DNA of 54,495 nt. It comes from a virus. Its lineage: Duplodnaviria; Caudoviricetes. Each line of letters begins with the position of its first letter. Position 1 is the first letter of the stretch. The stretch spans positions 1 through 54,495 of IMG/VR virus record IMGVR_UViG_3300021375_000035; one strand, 5' to 3'. The notes under the pieces are model-generated. The model made no database searches. It saw only the letters and a list, made by a program, of their open reading frames with translations, and had not been told where the DNA came from. A program made the translations under genes and the position numbers. Below, piece after piece: positions 28,907-53,222 of the stretch.

Positions 28907-30124
28907 TTACAGTGCTTGATAGGTTAACTCACATATATTACCCATTGTAGGGTGTTGAATTTCTAATTTACCAGATCTTCTATTACCTACATACTTATTG
29001 CTATAATGATAATAATCTGCCTTACCTAGGCTAGGTAATGTCTTTTCTACAAAGCCAGCTGTTTCATTAGATGTCATATATTCAACTTTTCTATCTGTAT
29101 GAATATGACCTTTAAATAATGTTCTATTTGTAGTTGCACCCCATTCTTTTGGATACTCAGTAGCAAATATTAAAGGGTTATTTTTACTACGTTTATCACC
29201 ATGTTCAAATGCATTAAAGTTATTATGCCATACATGAACTTTTCTTTCTTCATATTTTATATCCCAAGTAATTTGATTACACTCTATAGATTTAGATAAA
29301 GCATGTACTAAATGAAAAGAAGATAATCTATCATGATTACCTGGAACATAGACTATAACAAGCTCAGTACAAAATGCTTTTAAATAATTTATAGCCCAAT
29401 GCATTGCATCAAATGCTTGCATATAAGCATCTGTAGCAGTCATACAGTTATCTAATCCAGTTCCACTAGTAGTTGTACCCTCAAAAGTATCCATGTTAAT
29501 TAGATCCCCTCCTACAACAAAATACATTTTCTCAATGTAATTAACTGGTGCAGCTCTACTCATAAGATTTATAATTGTGTCTTCAAAATCTTTATCAATA
29601 GTATCATTACCTTGCTTACCAAAATGTATATCTTGTAAAGACATTACAGCACACACAGGATCTTTAGATTTAGCAGGTTTTAACTTAGGTATTTTATATG
29701 TTTTAGGTTTCCAATTTGCAAGAAGCTCCTCAAATAATTGTTGTTCAGGATTTTTTATTTGAGTAACTAAAGCTGATACTCTCCAATGATCTCCCATTTG
29801 TTTGTTCCAATATTGAGATAATCTCCATTTGTTAGTATCTATTTTTAAAAGTTTTATTATTTCTTCAGAAGACTTAGGCTCATGATCAAATGTTCCTGAT
29901 AGTTTGCCTTGTCCTTTTTCTAAATCTACTGCTTCAGTAATTTGACATTGACCATCATCATTTGTAAAAAACTTACTTCTTTTTCTTTCTTCTTTTCTTT
30001 CCTGTAATATTTCTTTTTTAATTTTTATATATTGTTTCTCAGTAATATTTAGTTTATTTGCACAATAACTTGGGTGCTTTTTCCATTTTAAAGATTCAAT
30101 AATTCTCTGTTTTAAATTTCCCAT
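28907..30124 (-). CDS. Calcineurin-like metallophosphoesterase with N-terminal HTH-like extension (405 aa)
   Basis: All five motifs present: DIH, GGDLINMD, GNHD, EHGD, GHIH. N-terminal YCANKLNITEKQY is HTH-like. Confidence 0.85.
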   Translation of the reverse strand: MGNLKQRIIESLKWKKHPSYCANKLNITEKQYIKIKKEILQERKEERKRSKFFTNDDGQCQITEAVDLEKGQGKLSGTFDHEPKSSEEIIKLLKIDTNKWRLSQYWNKQMGDHWRVSALVTQIKNPEQQLFEELLANWKPKTYKIPKLKPAKSKDPVCAVMSLQDIHFGKQGNDTIDKDFEDTIINLMSRAAPVNYIEKMYFVVGGDLINMDTFEGTTTSGTGLDNCMTATDAYMQAFDAMHWAINYLKAFCTELVIVYVPGNHDRLSSFHLVHALSKSIECNQITWDIKYEERKVHVWHNNFNAFEHGDKRSKNNPLIFATEYPKEWGATTNRTLFKGHIHTDRKVEYMTSNETAGFVEKTLPSLGKADYYHYSNKYVGNRRSGKLEIQHPTMGNICELTYQAL

Positions 30125-30142
30125 GTGTTTTTTTATTTTTGG

Positions 30143-30187
30143 CTAAAGATACAAAAAAAAAAGAGACCGGATTTAAACCCAGTCTCT
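30143..30187 (-). terminator. Intrinsic terminator fused to a near-consensus Bacteroidota -7 element (TATCTTTA)
   Basis: Minus strand GAGACTGG gtttaaat CCGGTCTC + T10 then GTATCTTTAG. Confidence 0.75.
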
Positions 30188-30237
30188 CCCAACGTTTGCA
30201 GTAGAAAACCAACAAACCACTACTTGCTGTTGTTGTA
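30153..30237 (-). ncRNA. Candidate 3'-UTR-derived antisense sRNA (hairpin with UGGUUUGUUGGUUUU loop plus terminator)
   Basis: Stem GC(A)AGTAG/CTACTGC (30198-30227) encloses a 15-nt loop complementary to AAAACCAACAAA upstream of the starts at 47883 and 40341, and to AAAACCAA upstream of 53222, 44458 and 33446. Confidence 0.45.
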
Positions 30238-30804
30238 TTATGATGCTAAGGTAGTAAACAGAATTTCTATAGGCTTACATGCCGCAGAATTACCATTATC
30301 TACTACTTTAACTTTATAAGCTGTACTAGCTAATAAGTTGGTTATTGTATAATTACTTATTGTAGTTACAATTGGAGTACCTCCATTTACAGGAGTTCCC
30401 CATCCGCTTGGTGCTATTACTGTGTCTATGTATACATTAAATCCTGTACTAGAACTATATATTCCATTCCATATTACATTAACAGAATCTTTTGTAATAA
30501 CCCCTGCGTATACATTAAATGGATCATGTTGAACATCACTTGAAGTACAAGCACCTAATCCGTTTGCTAAAATCATTGCATATTTCTGAATAATAGAATC
30601 AAGTCTTTCTCCAGATTGAATTGTAATTCTAGCATTTGCATCTCCAATTTGAAATGAAGTACCACAATAGCTTACACATTCAGCACATTGAATATCTGAA
30701 CATCTTTCACTACCTACACTACAATCCGTATAAGTACATGGATTAGTTAATGCTGTGTCTTTACATCCACATTTTTGATCACATTTTGTACAATTACATG
30801 CCAT
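30238..30804 (-). CDS. Cys-rich virion protein with C-terminal FN3 domain (188 aa)
   Basis: 11 Cys in the first 47 aa; FN3 signature VNVIW..GFNVY..YTITNLLASTAYKVKV. Confidence 0.7.
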   Translation of the reverse strand: MACNCTKCDQKCGCKDTALTNPCTYTDCSVGSERCSDIQCAECVSYCGTSFQIGDANARITIQSGERLDSIIQKYAMILANGLGACTSSDVQHDPFNVYAGVITKDSVNVIWNGIYSSSTGFNVYIDTVIAPSGWGTPVNGGTPIVTTISNYTITNLLASTAYKVKVVDNGNSAACKPIEILFTTLAS

Positions 30805-30821
30805 TTTATTTCTTTTTTATT

Positions 30822-33038
30822 TTATGAACAACCTGCTATTATTTGATTAGATATAGTTGTTGGATCTGATGACTGGTTCCATGCTCCACCTGTTTGATCT
30901 GCTAATTCTCTCCATGGATAAATCTGTGAACCACCTATTACACTAGATTGTTGTACACCTGGTCCACATATAAAGTATTTAATACCATTAGTATTAGCGT
31001 CTAAAATCATTGATTGAATACCTGCCCATGTAGTTGCATTAAATTGATCTTGAGTACCACTTGGTAAAGCATCAGTTATTATTATAACATATTTAGCTAC
31101 ATTAGATCTAAATGCTCCTGTAAAGTTTGCAGAACCAGTTACAAGTTGTGCAGCATAATCTGTAGGTTCAGCCATACCAACCCCATCTCCTAAATTAATA
31201 CATGTTCCGTCTACCCCTTTATTTAATTTATTTAATTGAGTTGTAAATGATGCACCATTATTAACCTGGAACATTTCCCAAGCTGTAATAATTTGATATT
31301 TTCCTGTTGATCCTAAATTTGCTACTTTTTGTGCTGCAGGTAAACTTGTATAATCTGTACAAGTAGCATATGTAGGTGCAGCTTGTTGCTCTTCATCAGC
31401 TCCTACTAAGGATACTCTATAATTATTTGCTCCTGAAGCATTGTCTATTGTAGTTACAAGTGAAGCTACACCTGCTTTAACAGAATCAATACGTGATCCC
31501 ATTGAACTACTATAATCTATTATAAATGCTACATCCATACCATTTGCACAAGGTGCTGATGCAGTTGTTGTTGCAATTGCTGATACTGGGCATACTCTTG
31601 TATTACCTCCATATGATACAGTAACTCTACCTTGATAAGCTGTATCTGGTGTTAAACCTGTAAATTGATGAGTAACAGTTCCTCCAGGATTGTTTTTAGT
31701 AACTGTATCAACAACTATATTATTAGCATCTAATATTTCTATTACATATTGTGCTGTATTACCTAAACTATTTGTCAAAGATACATCTGCTGTTGTTTGT
31801 GCCATAGTCCATGTTGTTGAAGGGCATGGTAATTGAACTGTCACTACACTACTTTGGTTTGCTTCACAAGTTTGACTACCATCTGTTACACTAAACTGTA
31901 CTGCTACATTTAAATCTGATCCTACATTTAAGGAACTTACATTTACATTTTGTCCAGCAGGATTATTTTGTAAAAGTGCAACACTCATTGTAGAACTCGT
32001 TGATGCACCTAAACTATCTGTTACTGTTACAATAGTAAAACCTGCACTATCATTAAAGCTTGAAGGAATAGTAGAATTCATAAAATTCATATTTATGTCT
32101 GTAACTAAACCTGAACTTGGTCCTATAACTGATGTACTAGTATATGCAAAAGTTATTCCATCACATCCTGATGGACAACAGTTAGTTTGTATGTCTGTTA
32201 TTGCTGCATACATATCATCTATTACTACCCATGCATTCTGAACACTTTGAGCTAGTGTATTAGCTGTATTAGACCAACCACTTATACTACTATATGTAGC
32301 AGAAGAATTAGAAAGTAACTGGCTTGCTCCAGTTAATGTTGTTTGATTGATAGCAGTATTTATATTTGCAGGAGTACCTGTTGCATTTCTTAAAGCACAA
32401 AAAGCACTTTCAAGTGCTAATACTACTACTGATACGTTGGTTAGTTGACCTATTGTACTTGTTACACAAGTTGGTACAATTTGAACTTCTGTAATTGCAC
32501 CTGAGCATGGTAAAACACATGCTTCTAACACATCTAGTCTATTACTATAACTAGTTAAAGTAGAGTTTATAGTTTGTATGCTAGCTAAATTAGTACATAC
32601 TTGATTTGCTATAAGTTCAGCAAATAAATCTAAACGTAGTTGTGTTACTGGGTTCCCACTTGCATCATTATACTGCAAACATGCAGGTAATGTCATAATA
32701 GGCAGATCATCTTGTACTTGTGTAGATTTAGGTAAAGCAGTAGAAGTGCTATTCAAGCATATCTGATTTACCATTGCTTGTAATACTGGTACAAGCTCAG
32801 TTGGTGTTGTACCTCTAACATTTAAACATGTAATATCTAATCCTGTTAAACTTGGATTAGCTGAAACACCGTTTGTAATTATGTCACATACCTTTGTAGC
32901 AATCTTAGCTGTAACCTCACTAATTGTATCTCCACTGCATAAATCTATACACGCAATATCAGGACCTTGCCATACTACACAATTAGATGATATATTATCA
33001 CACCCATTTGTGGTGCCGCTTGAATTTGTTGGAATCAT
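30822..33038 (-). CDS. Cys-rich fibre/spike-like protein with FN3 and VWA domains (738 aa)
   Basis: N-terminal CDNISSNCVVWQG and Cys-capped helical repeats; FN3 HQFTGLTPDTAYQGRV; VWA MDVAFIIDYSSSM...FRSNVAKYVIIITDA. Confidence 0.75.
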   Translation of the reverse strand: MIPTNSSGTTNGCDNISSNCVVWQGPDIACIDLCSGDTISEVTAKIATKVCDIITNGVSANPSLTGLDITCLNVRGTTPTELVPVLQAMVNQICLNSTSTALPKSTQVQDDLPIMTLPACLQYNDASGNPVTQLRLDLFAELIANQVCTNLASIQTINSTLTSYSNRLDVLEACVLPCSGAITEVQIVPTCVTSTIGQLTNVSVVVLALESAFCALRNATGTPANINTAINQTTLTGASQLLSNSSATYSSISGWSNTANTLAQSVQNAWVVIDDMYAAITDIQTNCCPSGCDGITFAYTSTSVIGPSSGLVTDINMNFMNSTIPSSFNDSAGFTIVTVTDSLGASTSSTMSVALLQNNPAGQNVNVSSLNVGSDLNVAVQFSVTDGSQTCEANQSSVVTVQLPCPSTTWTMAQTTADVSLTNSLGNTAQYVIEILDANNIVVDTVTKNNPGGTVTHQFTGLTPDTAYQGRVTVSYGGNTRVCPVSAIATTTASAPCANGMDVAFIIDYSSSMGSRIDSVKAGVASLVTTIDNASGANNYRVSLVGADEEQQAAPTYATCTDYTSLPAAQKVANLGSTGKYQIITAWEMFQVNNGASFTTQLNKLNKGVDGTCINLGDGVGMAEPTDYAAQLVTGSANFTGAFRSNVAKYVIIITDALPSGTQDQFNATTWAGIQSMILDANTNGIKYFICGPGVQQSSVIGGSQIYPWRELADQTGGAWNQSSDPTTISNQIIAGCS

Positions 33039-33087
33039 AAATGTTCTTTTTACTATAAAGTACTACTCTGTTGTAACTATACAGTAA

Positions 33088-33098
33088 TAATATACAAA
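33088..33098 (-). promoter_or_regulatory. Putative phage late promoter TTTGTATATTA
   Basis: Exact copy of the recurring intergenic 11-mer, 49 nt upstream of the ATG at 33038. Confidence 0.6.
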
Positions 33099-40928: not shown

Positions 40929-40958
40929 TTTATGTCTTACTTTATTATACTATATAGA

Positions 40959-40969
40959 TAATATACAAA
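40959..40969 (-). promoter_or_regulatory. Putative phage late promoter TTTGTATATTA
   Basis: Exact copy of the recurring 11-mer, 30 nt upstream of the ATG at 40928. Confidence 0.6.
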
Positions 40970-40985
40970 AAATTACAGACAATTT

Positions 40986-41020
40986 AAAATAAAAAGAGCA
41001 GGAGATTTCTCCCCTGCTCT
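40986..41020 (-). terminator. Intrinsic terminator
   Basis: Minus strand AGAGCAGG ggagaaatct CCTGCTCT TTTTATTTT. Confidence 0.8.
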
Positions 41021-44845: not shown

Positions 44846-44878
44846 AAAAAGGGAGGAGGCATAAACCACCTCCCCTTT
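44846..44878 (-). terminator. Intrinsic terminator after MCP
   Basis: Minus strand GGGGAGGTGG tttatg CCTCCTCCC TTTTT. Confidence 0.8.
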
Positions 44879-46511: not shown

Positions 46512-46566
46512 AATTTTGATTGTTTTTAGTTAATAATTAATTTCAGTTTATATATTTAATGTTAAA

Positions 46567-47883: not shown

Positions 47884-47923
47884 AATATTTGTTGGTTTTA
47901 ATATTAATAACTTCTTACATACA

Positions 47924-47934
47924 TAATATAAGAA
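47924..47934 (-). promoter_or_regulatory. Late-promoter variant TTCTTATATTA
   Basis: TATATTA core 40 nt upstream of the scaffold ATG. Confidence 0.5.
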
Positions 47935-50764: not shown

Positions 50765-52951
50765 TTATCTATAATTTTTAAAGCCAGATCTTTTAATTCT
50801 AGTACTATTATCTCTTCTATTACGTCCAAGATTCTTAAACGGACTATACTTTAATTTACTTATTTTTTCTGAATTTACCAAGGAATTATCCTCTGATTCA
50901 CGTCTTTTAGTATATCCTCTGTTAGACTGTTGAATTTTGACAAATGCAATTAATGCACCAAATGCAACTAATCTATCCACGTTAAGTCCAGGATAATAAG
51001 CCTGCATTTCTTTTAAAAGCATAGGATCTGGTATTCTTTCTACACCAAAAGTTTGAGACATTACATTACCTTCTTCATCTGTTTCTTCATCAATAACTTC
51101 TCTTAAAAATTCAATAGCATATGATATTAAATGACTTTTAAACAAAGTCCCTGTATTCTTCCAACCGTATTCCTGATATACTGTTTTGTTAGATCCTAAA
51201 TCTTTTAAAAATAATATCTGTTGCTTTGGAACTAAATATCTTTGTTTCTTTCTAGCAATCATATGTTGGATAAATAAACTTATATTGTTTTCTACAATAG
51301 TCCATGCATTATACCATTCTATAAGCATCTCAAGTCTTTCATGTGTTTTGTTTATATCATCAAACCTACCACACCATGCTGCTACAATCTTATCCTTTTC
51401 TATAAATTGTTCTACATCTCCACTAGCTAATTGTCTAGTTACCTCAATTGCATTCTTATAAATAAAAATACTACATAATGAATCTGATGTAGTTGTCTTA
51501 CCTTCTGATACAGGGTCAATAGAAGCATAATAAGCACCAAAGTCTGGTCTTTTCTTAGCTGGTCTTTCCCATACTACAATTGATCCCGTCTTATCTGTTT
51601 GTTTTTTATTTACTGGAAATTGTGAAATAGGTAACTTACTTGTTCTTGATGCAATAATTCCTGTCTCATCTCTATCAAGTTTAATTAACTCATATGAGTA
51701 TTCTTTTTCTTCAATCCTTTTTAATTGCTTACTAACTACACCTTGTGGAAAAACAGATTCTTTTCTATATGCAAATGCTTCAGCAATGTTTAATGGTTTC
51801 TGAGATATTCTTAATTGAAATTGTTCACCACTTAATTCATTCTTCCATCTTTCTCTTTCTATTCTAATTGCTTGTATAGCTTCTTCTATTTGAGAATTAC
51901 CATAATCATCAATGTATGGTGGCATTGACCATTGCTCTGGTATGAATAGACCTGCCATTGCTATAGTGCCATCAGCGTCCATTAAATTAGTTTCTACAGC
52001 ATATATATCATTTGCACCAGGATTGAGAATCATATCCTTTAATGGTCCACATTGTTCTAAATCACCCACAGATCCTGCAGCAATAAATTGCCCAGTTGTC
52101 ATCATACCGGAAGACATTGCTGGACGTAAGTACTCATAAGTCTGCATCATGTTTTTAGCAATACCTGCTTCCTCATGAAAAAAGTAAGTACATGGTCCAC
52201 CAACTCCAGTTGTTGCATTCTTCTCAAAAGATGCACCTTGAATTTTAGATTTTAAACCTCTTGAAGTTTTTCTGTTATTTACTTTAACTTCAATCTGTTG
52301 TTGCCATAAAAGAACTTTCTCTGGATTACTAGGTCTATACCATGCAGTATGTTCATTTAAAAATGTCTTATACTCTTCTAAAAACTTCCATGAACCTTTA
52401 TCATTAATGTAATCTTTAAGTGAAGCACCTACTTTACATATTGATCCTTCTTCAAACCAATACTGATTGATAATCTTACCCATATGAAAATATGAAGAAG
52501 CAATCTGTCTTTTCTTTAAAATAGCTACGTGTTGATTATTTAATTCAGCAATAATCTCATAGAGTGCCATATGATATTGTGCATCTCTTACTTTAGCAAA
52601 TCCGTAGTGCTTTTCTTCTTTATCAAATATAGGTAAGAAGTTGAGCCACATGTAGTAATCTCTGGTTAAATACCATTCAGCGTCTCCATCTTTAAATATT
52701 ACACCACTCCTACACTTATTCTTTTGATCTTCCCAATATGCTGTAAAGTCTTTTGATCTAAAGGGAGCACTACAATACACACCTTCTTTATTGAATATGC
52801 GTGCTTGCTCATTAAATTTAAAAGACATTTCAGTAAATTCATACTCTCCTGGCTCTTTAAAAATAAGCTCTAGATACTCTCTAAATTCTAAGTCTGTTTT
52901 AAACTCTCTAGTACCCCATTCTCCATCATATATAGGAATGATTCTACTCAT
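50765..52951 (-). CDS. terL: Terminase large subunit (728 aa)
   Basis: Walker A-like LKKRQIASSY, Walker B FFHEEAG, nuclease motifs ASIDPVSEG, IVENN, NVDRLVA. Confidence 0.92.
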   Translation of the reverse strand: MSRIIPIYDGEWGTREFKTDLEFREYLELIFKEPGEYEFTEMSFKFNEQARIFNKEGVYCSAPFRSKDFTAYWEDQKNKCRSGVIFKDGDAEWYLTRDYYMWLNFLPIFDKEEKHYGFAKVRDAQYHMALYEIIAELNNQHVAILKKRQIASSYFHMGKIINQYWFEEGSICKVGASLKDYINDKGSWKFLEEYKTFLNEHTAWYRPSNPEKVLLWQQQIEVKVNNRKTSRGLKSKIQGASFEKNATTGVGGPCTYFFHEEAGIAKNMMQTYEYLRPAMSSGMMTTGQFIAAGSVGDLEQCGPLKDMILNPGANDIYAVETNLMDADGTIAMAGLFIPEQWSMPPYIDDYGNSQIEEAIQAIRIERERWKNELSGEQFQLRISQKPLNIAEAFAYRKESVFPQGVVSKQLKRIEEKEYSYELIKLDRDETGIIASRTSKLPISQFPVNKKQTDKTGSIVVWERPAKKRPDFGAYYASIDPVSEGKTTTSDSLCSIFIYKNAIEVTRQLASGDVEQFIEKDKIVAAWCGRFDDINKTHERLEMLIEWYNAWTIVENNISLFIQHMIARKKQRYLVPKQQILFLKDLGSNKTVYQEYGWKNTGTLFKSHLISYAIEFLREVIDEETDEEGNVMSQTFGVERIPDPMLLKEMQAYYPGLNVDRLVAFGALIAFVKIQQSNRGYTKRRESEDNSLVNSEKISKLKYSPFKNLGRNRRDNSTRIKRSGFKNYR

Positions 52952-53222
52952 CTCTTATGATAGCATATACATCTCCAAACTGTAATAATAAATGCTGCTC
53001 ACCATTGTGTGTCATTGGTGTAGGCATTGCATGATCTGCATAATGTACCACATCTCCTATTTGTATTTCTTTAACTTCATCTCCTTTACCAACTACTTCA
53101 CCTTGAAAGGTTTTTTTCTGTGCCATTTCTGGTAAATATAATCCTGATGCAGTTTTAGTTTCAGGCTTAATTTCCTTTATTAATAACTTCATTCCTACTG
53201 GCACTACTACTTTTTTCTTCAT
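52944..53222 (-). CDS. groES: Co-chaperonin GroES (Cpn10)
   Basis: PVGMKLLIK..ETKTASGLYLPE..GEVVGKG..GDVV..DVYAII. Confidence 0.9.
   Translation of the reverse strand: MKKKVVVPVGMKLLIKEIKPETKTASGLYLPEMAQKKTFQGEVVGKGDEVKEIQIGDVVHYADHAMPTPMTHNGEQHLLLQFGDVYAIIRDE

Follow-up and report, generated by a model that had tools for sequence, protein, structure and literature searches.

A conserved RNA hairpin at the 3' end of a crAss-like phage transcript exposes a loop complementary to head-module start regions: a candidate antisense regulator

What is the role of an RNA hairpin that sits at the 3' end of a phage mRNA and exposes a loop complementary to a motif found directly before the start codons of several other genes of the same phage? 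The question is raised by the 54,495-nucleotide (nt) virus record IMGVR_UViG_3300021375_000035, the whole of which we refer to as the window. In this 54.5-kb record, with an estimated completeness of 47%, the minus strand carries every long gene, and a 539-amino-acid (aa) protein matches the major capsid family of crAss-viruses. On that strand the hairpin follows a gene of 188 aa, and the complementary motif precedes a 438-aa putative scaffold gene, a GroES-like gene, and three further genes encoding proteins of 339, 59 and 92 aa. An initial annotation had proposed that the hairpin belongs to a small RNA from the 3' untranslated region (UTR) acting on five assembly-factor genes. We found that the hairpin is a well-supported, conserved and strand-specific structured RNA motif without an Rfam family, and that its loop core is complementary to the most enriched leader motif of these phages, making it a candidate antisense RNA for translation-initiation regions.

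Read along the minus strand, the stop codon of the 188-aa gene (30240-30238) is followed by ACAACAACAGCAA, GTAGTGG, TTTGTTGGTTTT, CTACTGC, AAACGTTGG and the terminator GGGAGAGACTGG..CCGGTCTC, whose T-run ends at 30153, ahead of the ATG of a 405-aa exonuclease gene at 30124. The minimum-energy fold and the comparative data agree on a stem of 7 bp, including two G·U pairs, closed by a loop of exactly 12 nt (Table 1). The initial annotation had correctly placed a hairpin between the 188-aa stop codon and the terminator, but its bulged GC(A)AGUAG stem with a 15-nt loop gives way to this simpler fold. The 121-nt intergenic RNA, comprising the hairpin and the strong terminator, folds with -28.7 kcal/mol (z = -2.77; 2 of 200 shuffles were as good). 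A search of the whole window against Rfam 15 returned 0 matches at gathering thresholds, the best sub-threshold match being L20_leader with 19.7 bits, compared with the 58.7 needed.

With the exonuclease gene as query we collected 80 related loci, at 63-99% protein identity, and compared the element in two alignments: A1, with 60 rows (59 distinct), and the wider, model-fitted A2, with 62 distinct rows, which leans towards the covariance model's own structure. The loop core TTGTTGGTTTT was present in 79 of the 80 exonuclease-linked loci, the 80th holding only 63 nt upstream and falling short of the region. The same core occurred in 77 of 80 loci from more distant exonuclease queries, and the exact loop 12-mer in 72 of the 78 usable loci of a further distant-query set; these sets, like that of the pattern scan described below, share many contigs and are not independent counts. 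While the loop columns of A1 were invariant, the stem varied, taking forms such as GUGAUAG/CUAUCAC, GUGGCGG/CUGUCAC and GCAAUAA/UUAUUGC, with 99.0% of cells pairing and both-sided changes in 4 of the 7 pairs. None of 500 shuffles reached the observed pairing, and slid controls were only 29-82% paired. RNAalifold independently returned the same hairpin and terminator, and in A2 the stem was 99.5% paired, with both-sided changes in 6 of 7 pairs. Stem covariation and loop conservation, which the initial annotation had proposed to test, are thus borne out across the relatives. Moreover, G·U pairs are abundant on the gene strand (pair 25-41, for example, is GU in 51 of the 59 A1 rows), and since these would be C·A on the opposite strand, the structure is that of the gene-strand RNA.

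Of 15 genomes or records scanned with a covariance model built from A1, 14 hold a single clear copy scoring at least 31 bits, and the remaining one, G011, has a weak copy of 24 bits. Additional weak model matches were rejected as second copies, as the three inspected, together with the window's own equivalent, proved to be plain terminators followed by a promoter-like box. In a pattern scan of viral contigs, 63 of the 80 matches listed fit the covariance model and 17 do not; a wider distribution based on pattern matches was rejected, four of these 17 loci having been inspected and found to be chance matches in unrelated sequence. Altogether, the hairpin is conserved in well over a hundred environmental contigs.

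The terminator that follows has the features of an intrinsic (Rho-independent) terminator at 30190-30153, and its helix was 96.7% paired in A2, with both-sided changes in 11 of 12 pairs. The hairpin (30198-30223) therefore lies between a stop codon (30238-30240) and the terminator of its own mRNA, running to 30153, which is the position occupied by small RNAs derived from 3'-UTRs, and its near-invariant, unpaired 12-nt loop corresponds to the conserved, structurally exposed seed of such RNAs. A possible outer helix, involving the CAAC side of a conserved tract, can also be drawn; this side is mostly invariant in relatives, so that covariation neither supports nor refutes the pairing.

We then considered the motif that the loop would face. 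The exact 12-mer AAAACCAACAAA occurs three times in the window, once on the plus strand as the loop complement and twice on the minus strand, before the 59-aa and the scaffold genes; allowing up to one mismatch there are five matches, against 1.18 expected, a number reached in 1 of 100 shuffles. For the shorter AAAACCAA we counted 10 occurrences where 4.45 are expected, a number attained in 2 of 100 shuffles. Five of its six minus-strand copies end shortly before an ATG, at distances of 0 nt (59-aa gene), 3 nt (339-aa), 4 nt (438-aa), 5 nt (GroES) and 8 nt (92-aa). The 12-nt matches before the scaffold and 59-aa genes and the 8-nt matches before the GroES, 339-aa and 92-aa genes had all been reported in the initial annotation, with positions and distances that we found to be exact.

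Enrichment was assessed within 30 nt upstream of 580 called starts in six genomes. AAACCAA preceded 34 of these 580 starts, 10.5-fold over the genome background, and no other 7-mer seen 10 times or more was as enriched; for comparison, 18 non-overlapping 7-mers of composition A5C2 were found 1-11 times, and the overlapping AAAACCA and AACCAAA 29 and 15 times. Across 11 genomes, AAACCAA alone among 7-mers was retained by 70% or more of the orthologous leaders in at least three gene groups, standing before the scaffold gene in 11/11, the 339-aa gene in 11/11 and the 59-aa gene in 7/8 leaders. The scaffold leader carries the motif in all 15 genomes or records read, and among 80 further scaffold loci with 37 distinct leaders, AAACCAA was found in 37, AAACCAAC in 36, AAAACCAACA in 31 and the full 12-mer in 15. 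For GroES, AAAACCAA is present in the window, G001 and G002, AAACCAA in G003 and G006, and AAACCA in G004, such that the core is found in 6 of 10 leaders read; the motif is absent from the GroES leaders of G005, G007, G009 and G010. The proposal of a motif shared by five genes thus holds for the scaffold, 339-aa and 59-aa genes and in part for GroES, but not for the 92-aa gene, where the motif is weakly conserved (2 of 6 genomes). Of the five, moreover, only GroES is shown to be an assembly factor; the putative scaffold assignment of the 438-aa protein comes from the position of its gene between the portal and capsid genes and not from a match.

Because the motif fills intercistronic gaps of 11 nt before the 59-aa gene and 19 nt before the GroES gene, it is a translation-level RNA signal rather than a promoter, and AAAACCAA as a promoter or transcription start was rejected on the same grounds. 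No Shine-Dalgarno sequence was seen in the leaders, judged by eye.

The two lines of observation converge: the loop is complementary to (A)AAACCAA(C), and its core corresponds, base for base, to the complement of the leader 7-mer that ranks first in both enrichment and breadth of conservation. In the scaffold leader, at least 7 contiguous bases were complementary to the loop in 15 of 15 records read, and at least 10 (AAAACCAACA) in 31 of the 37 distinct close relatives. Scaffold-leader position 9 is C in 13/13 records whose loop retains the facing G, and A in the two records in which the loop base there has changed, to U in G006 (giving an A-U pair) and to C in G013, so that this position tracks the loop G in 15/15 records while other positions do not, a pattern read by eye, resting on few independent events and uncorrected for phylogeny. 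In the L161 group a leader U at position 9 faces a retained loop G as a G·U pair, and A-to-G changes at leader position 10 face U, with pairing preserved.

Six records with variant loops were found by walking out with more distant exonucleases, and their scaffold leaders were read by hand. In G006, loop UUUUGUUUGGUUUU pairs with leader AAAAACCAAAUAUU over 9 nt (10 including the closing U), compared with 8 for the standard loop, a compensatory change, and in G014 loop UUGUUGGUUU with its closing C consistently matches leader GAAACCAACA over 9-10 nt. The change is about neutral in G007 (10 nt, versus 11 with the standard loop) and in G012 (8 plus one G·U, versus 9 plus one G·U), and neutral in G013, where leader AAACCAAAAAA has a mismatch at position 9 with the variant loop UUUCUUGGUUU and with the standard loop alike. 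Together with G011, discussed below, this amounts to two compensatory or consistent cases, three roughly neutral ones and one contrary one (n = 6). Co-variation of the loop with its targets, which the initial annotation had suggested examining, is therefore mixed: leader position 9 tracks the loop, other positions do not, and G011 speaks against it.

Table 1. Positions of the hairpin, its surroundings and the complementary leader motifs in the window
Feature	Position	Strand	Remarks
Leader motif of GroES-like gene, AAAACCAA	53228..53235	-	
GroES-like co-chaperonin gene	52944..53222	-	Cpn10, E = 2.8e-12; directly upstream of large terminase gene
Leader motif of 438-aa putative scaffold gene, AAAACCAACAAA	47888..47899	-	candidate primary target
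Leader motif of 339-aa gene, AAAACCAA	44462..44469	-	
Leader motif of 59-aa Cys-rich gene, AAAACCAACAAA	40342..40353	-	first A is that of the upstream stop codon
Leader motif of 92-aa gene, AAAACCAA	33455..33462	-	
188-aa gene	30238..30804	-	fn3-like, weak 'major tail protein' match; hairpin in its 3' untranslated end
Possible outer helix, 5' side, CAAC	30229..30232	-	within conserved AACAACA tract; predicted partner 30190-30193
Hairpin 5' arm, GUAGUGG	30217..30223	-	pairs with 30198-30204; folding and comparative data
Apical loop, 12 nt, UUUGUUGGUUUU	30205..30216	-	candidate seed; unpaired in folds; near-invariant among relatives
Hairpin 3' arm, CUACUGC	30198..30204	-	sequence, covariation, RNAalifold
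Conserved linker, AAACGUUGG	30189..30197	-	holds second GUUGG; G48 and T50 invariant, T49 and G51 nearly so; GUUG may form outer helix
Intrinsic terminator	30153..30190	-	stem-loop (14 pairs) and U-tract (T-run); RNAalifold
TATCTTTA box	30144..30151	-	candidate promoter element of exonuclease gene; read directly, just downstream of terminator

These results suggest a model in which the hairpin and terminator, forming the 3' end of the late transcript of the 188-aa gene and a 738-aa gene upstream of it, would act as an antisense 'anti-leader' RNA. The acting form may be a processed 3'-UTR-derived small RNA of about 75-85 nt, which we infer could accumulate as a short species, or the hairpin may act as part of the uncut mRNA. 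Through its core GUUGGUUU(U), the single-stranded 12-nt loop would meet and pair with (A)AAACCAA(C)(A) located 0-8 nt upstream of the AUG in a small set of head-module mRNAs. The scaffold gene would be the leading target, with 10-12 nt of pairing, ahead of the 339-aa, 59-aa and GroES genes with 7-8 nt. Since the motif lies within the ribosome footprint of leaders devoid of Shine-Dalgarno sequences, such pairing would be expected to block initiation, and its effect would be to reduce the output of these proteins when expression of the tail operon has become strong, thereby possibly linking tail expression to head assembly. We hold it to be moderately probable that a 3'-end antisense RNA pairs with these initiation regions, scaffold first, which makes the hairpin a candidate member of the known kind of base-pairing 3'-end regulatory RNAs. 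A further step, which we advance only tentatively, is that, in a large clade of marine crAss-like phages without Shine-Dalgarno leaders, AAACCAA(C) may serve as the dedicated translational operator of a head-assembly regulon made up of the scaffold, the phage GroES and two unknown head-module proteins, and that a single phage loop may act in trans as an 'anti-RBS' (anti-ribosome-binding site) that sets the scaffold-to-capsid balance once the tail genes are on.

Several observations weigh against antisense pairing. Across the six genomes, 46 start regions had at least 7 contiguous bases complementary to the loop, compared with a mean of 57 for shuffled loops, and 28 had at least 8, versus a mean of 21, with 835 of 2000 mononucleotide shuffles reaching as high. 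The expectation that start-region complementarity would exceed shuffled controls therefore failed for contiguous matches, and 'more targets than chance' as a raw count was rejected; the counts do not rise above those of shuffled U9G3 loops because any U-rich loop matches A-rich leaders, and the specificity of the match resides in the core that contains GG/CC. Given the base composition of the loop, the chance of a TTGGTTT core is about 0.09, by our own rough estimate. The idea of conserved 12-mer targets was likewise rejected: the perfect 12-nt matches of the initial annotation are special to its lineage, and in five complete relatives the exact 12-mer occurs as the loop itself only. Single-sequence energies of the hairpin were no better than those of shuffles (z from -0.3 to -2.4), and with energies this unremarkable the evidence for the hairpin comes from covariation. 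No promoter for a separate small RNA was evident, by eye, upstream of the hairpin or inside the 3' end of the 188-aa gene, and in four marine RNA runs none of the contigs covers the hairpin, a result uninformative on expression either way.

The most pointed counter-example is G011, whose loop UUUGUUGGUAUAU pairs with a standard scaffold leader (AAAAACCAAC) over only 7-9 nt, so that pairing is lowered. The hairpin is not the minimum-energy fold in this genome, yet the scaffold leader and its neighbours keep AAAAACCAAC, and since these leaders remain standard despite the decayed hairpin, the leader motif may be kept for a reason of its own. The G011 element (L373:16909-17000) has decayed in other respects too, with the linker AAACGUUGG missing and the U-tract weak, which makes this genome a natural test case for the dependence of the leader motif on the hairpin.

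The same observations nourish the main alternative, that the hairpin is an element marking the 3' end of the tail-operon mRNA for sequence-specific protein binding, for processing or for stability, for example by recruiting an RNA-binding protein of the phage or host or by holding off nucleases, and that its U/G-rich loop faces A/C-rich leaders incidentally. All 12 loop bases are invariant in A1 though most targets pair with just 7-10 of them, conserved linear motifs (AACAACA and AAACGUUGG) flank the hairpin, the shuffled-loop control was not significant, and the leader motifs persist in G011 despite the decay of the hairpin, all of which such an element would readily accommodate. It would, however, leave to chance both the complementarity and the position-9 pattern: that, of all leader 7-mers, the loop core should exactly complement the one with the highest enrichment and the widest conservation, that leader position 9 tracks the loop G in 15/15 records, and that transitions at paired positions keep pairing. 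No candidate binding protein is known, and we regard this explanation as unlikely, if the most serious of the alternatives.

Considerably less probable is an antitermination-like signal governing read-through of the terminator into the exonuclease and virion-polymerase block. The boxB hairpin of lambda nut and the put sites of HK022 are antitermination RNAs, and they share with the present element a conserved hairpin just upstream of a terminator in a phage operon; here the hairpin lies 9 nt upstream of a strong terminator with a long same-strand gene block beyond. Unlike at nut and put, a promoter-like box follows the terminator, reading TATCTTTA in the window and TATCTTTA, TATATTTG or TACATTTA at the equivalent place in relatives (L004-L083). 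This type of box resembles the Bacteroidota -7 promoter element, TAnnTTTG, and with such a conserved candidate promoter beyond the terminator, the genes that follow probably have a promoter of their own. No such hairpin accompanies the module's remaining strong terminators, located after the major capsid gene (44853-44875) and at 40995-41020, neither a boxA-like partner nor an N-like protein was identified, and the loop, at 12 nt, does not resemble a GNRA-like pentaloop. Read-through control would also leave the complementarity unaccounted for.

A purely cis-acting arrangement fares worse still and appears quite improbable. In Staphylococcus aureus, a motif in the 3'-UTR of icaR pairs with the ribosome-binding site of that same mRNA, and the phage hairpin is likewise a 3'-UTR element complementary to a ribosome-binding region from which a block of initiation would be expected. 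If transcripts from the scaffold promoter ended at this terminator, their 5' leader could pair with their own 3' hairpin, a scheme in keeping with all genes being on one strand and with the 10-12 nt of complementarity between the two. However, the same two strong intrinsic terminators (44853-44875 and 40995-41020) stand between the scaffold gene and the hairpin, and a promoter-like box precedes the 738-aa gene, so that scaffold leader and hairpin are unlikely to share a transcript, as judged from these signals; the phage elements would thus occupy separate, terminator-divided units and face leaders without Shine-Dalgarno sequences, whereas icaR involves a single mRNA and a Shine-Dalgarno target. 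Finally, a DNA-level element, a cruciform or protein-binding site for replication, packaging or recombination, would fit an inverted repeat with an invariant centre occurring once per genome, but it is the least probable of all and the cruciform was rejected, as the G·U-rich stem becomes C·A mismatches on the other strand and the site lies directly at a transcript end, fused to the terminator.

Setting these alternatives beside antisense pairing, the closest known relatives of the proposed RNA are CpxQ, DapZ and SroC of enterobacteria, base-pairing small RNAs derived from 3'-UTRs that share the terminator of their mRNA. As in these RNAs, the phage hairpin sits between a stop codon and the intrinsic terminator of the operon, has a short, conserved single-stranded seed, and complements the initiation regions of several genes. 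It differs in being phage-encoded and aimed at the phage's own genes, in carrying its seed in a 12-nt apical loop and in facing a non-Shine-Dalgarno target, and no processing site, chaperone, RNA species or Rfam match is known for it. CopA/CopT, RNA I/RNA II and RNA-OUT exemplify loop-first antisense control, and with them the hairpin shares a large U-rich apical loop on a short stem that would serve as first contact; the CopA/CopT type is cis-encoded and fully complementary, while here the RNA is trans-encoded, the match spans 7-12 nt and a target hairpin is weakly supported.

Phage or satellite small RNAs that regulate phage genes reportedly include the small RNA of the ICP1/PLE interactome (Dunham et al. 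2023, cited in PMC10884466) and a phage-encoded small RNA that is the subject of a preprint (10.1101/2024.10.31.621285). The likeness lies in an RNA of a mobile element acting post-transcriptionally during lytic growth; those RNAs act in Hfq-containing proteobacteria and were found by experiment, and none is known to come from crAss-like or marine uncultured phages. Our search of the literature on small RNAs in crAss-like phages and on phage-encoded small RNAs found no report of such an element.

The leaders of the head module offered some further observations. The scaffold leader (47884-47912, minus strand; at about 970-1000 in L114-L193) can form a weak, all-A·U hairpin showing AAAACCAACA in its loop, and the main variants of this leader, AATATT..AATATT and AATTAT..ATAATT, differ in a compensatory manner. 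The leader hairpin was found in 19 of 30 distinct scaffold leaders, with energies of just -0.5 to -2.2 kcal/mol, and is missing from most distant genomes (G002-G004, G006, G008-G010); the idea of a kissing-loop was accordingly not adopted. In front of the major capsid gene lies a leader of a different class (46512-46541, minus strand), with a conserved sequence of its own, ..AAAACAATCAA(A)TT ATG, in which ACAATCA occurs in 8 of 11 genomes; it differs from the AAACCAA class and has no complementarity to the hairpin loop.

In its wider setting, the minus strand reads, in order, the GroES-like gene, large terminase, portal, the 438-aa acidic protein and major capsid protein, followed by several unknown genes, a tail-fibre protein, a 738-aa VWA/fn3 protein and the 188-aa fn3 protein; beyond the hairpin and terminator come the 405-aa exonuclease and very large proteins, with a virion-polymerase in the same-strand block. 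A conserved box of about 22 nt, TTTTTTGTATATTAT(C/A)TATATAG, is found on the minus strand at 40950-40972, 33077-33098 and 47914-47934, reading TTCTTATATTATGTATGTAAG before the scaffold gene. It lies directly after terminators, 25-50 nt upstream of the 191-aa, 738-aa and scaffold genes, is retained in distant relatives (L280:2750-2775, L105:3783-3800 and L291:13450-13475), and likely represents a phage promoter class, perhaps a late one. A scan of the window for tRNA and tmRNA genes returned none.

A nucleotide search among cultured phages gave zero matches to the window, and all relatives of the major capsid protein among cultured phages are below 30% identity; therefore, no cultured model or published transcriptome applies. 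Leaders devoid of Shine-Dalgarno sequences and the TAnnTTTG-like boxes hint at a Bacteroidota host. Among 185,579 species genomes, the hairpin pattern had a single match (L383:240-480), on a 62-kb contig of a metagenome-assembled genome labelled Gammaproteobacteria, with the same 188-aa gene end, hairpin, terminator and exonuclease start. This label is at odds with the Bacteroidota-like signals, and the contig is probably that of a phage binned into the assembled genome. The four marine metatranscriptome runs mentioned above contain short contig pieces, 88-100% identical to the exonuclease, 188-aa and 738-aa coding regions (window 29600-31000), and because such contigs match its coding regions the phage group is present in these RNA libraries, which does not by itself establish transcription.

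To our knowledge, RNA-based regulation has been described neither for crAss-like phages nor for phages of hosts that do not use Shine-Dalgarno pairing, and the hairpin described here points at a defined and testable set of start regions. Should the pairing prove real, these phages would coordinate their head-assembly factors with tail expression without protein regulators, the system would provide a handle on what replaces the ribosome-binding site where Shine-Dalgarno sequences are lacking, and loop and operator together would offer a compact translational switch for reuse in Bacteroidota-type hosts. If the operator reading also holds, it would represent an RNA solution to scaffold autoregulation and the first post-transcriptional regulon described for such phages. 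Even without such pairing, the hairpin remains a new and well-supported structured RNA motif in need of an explanation.

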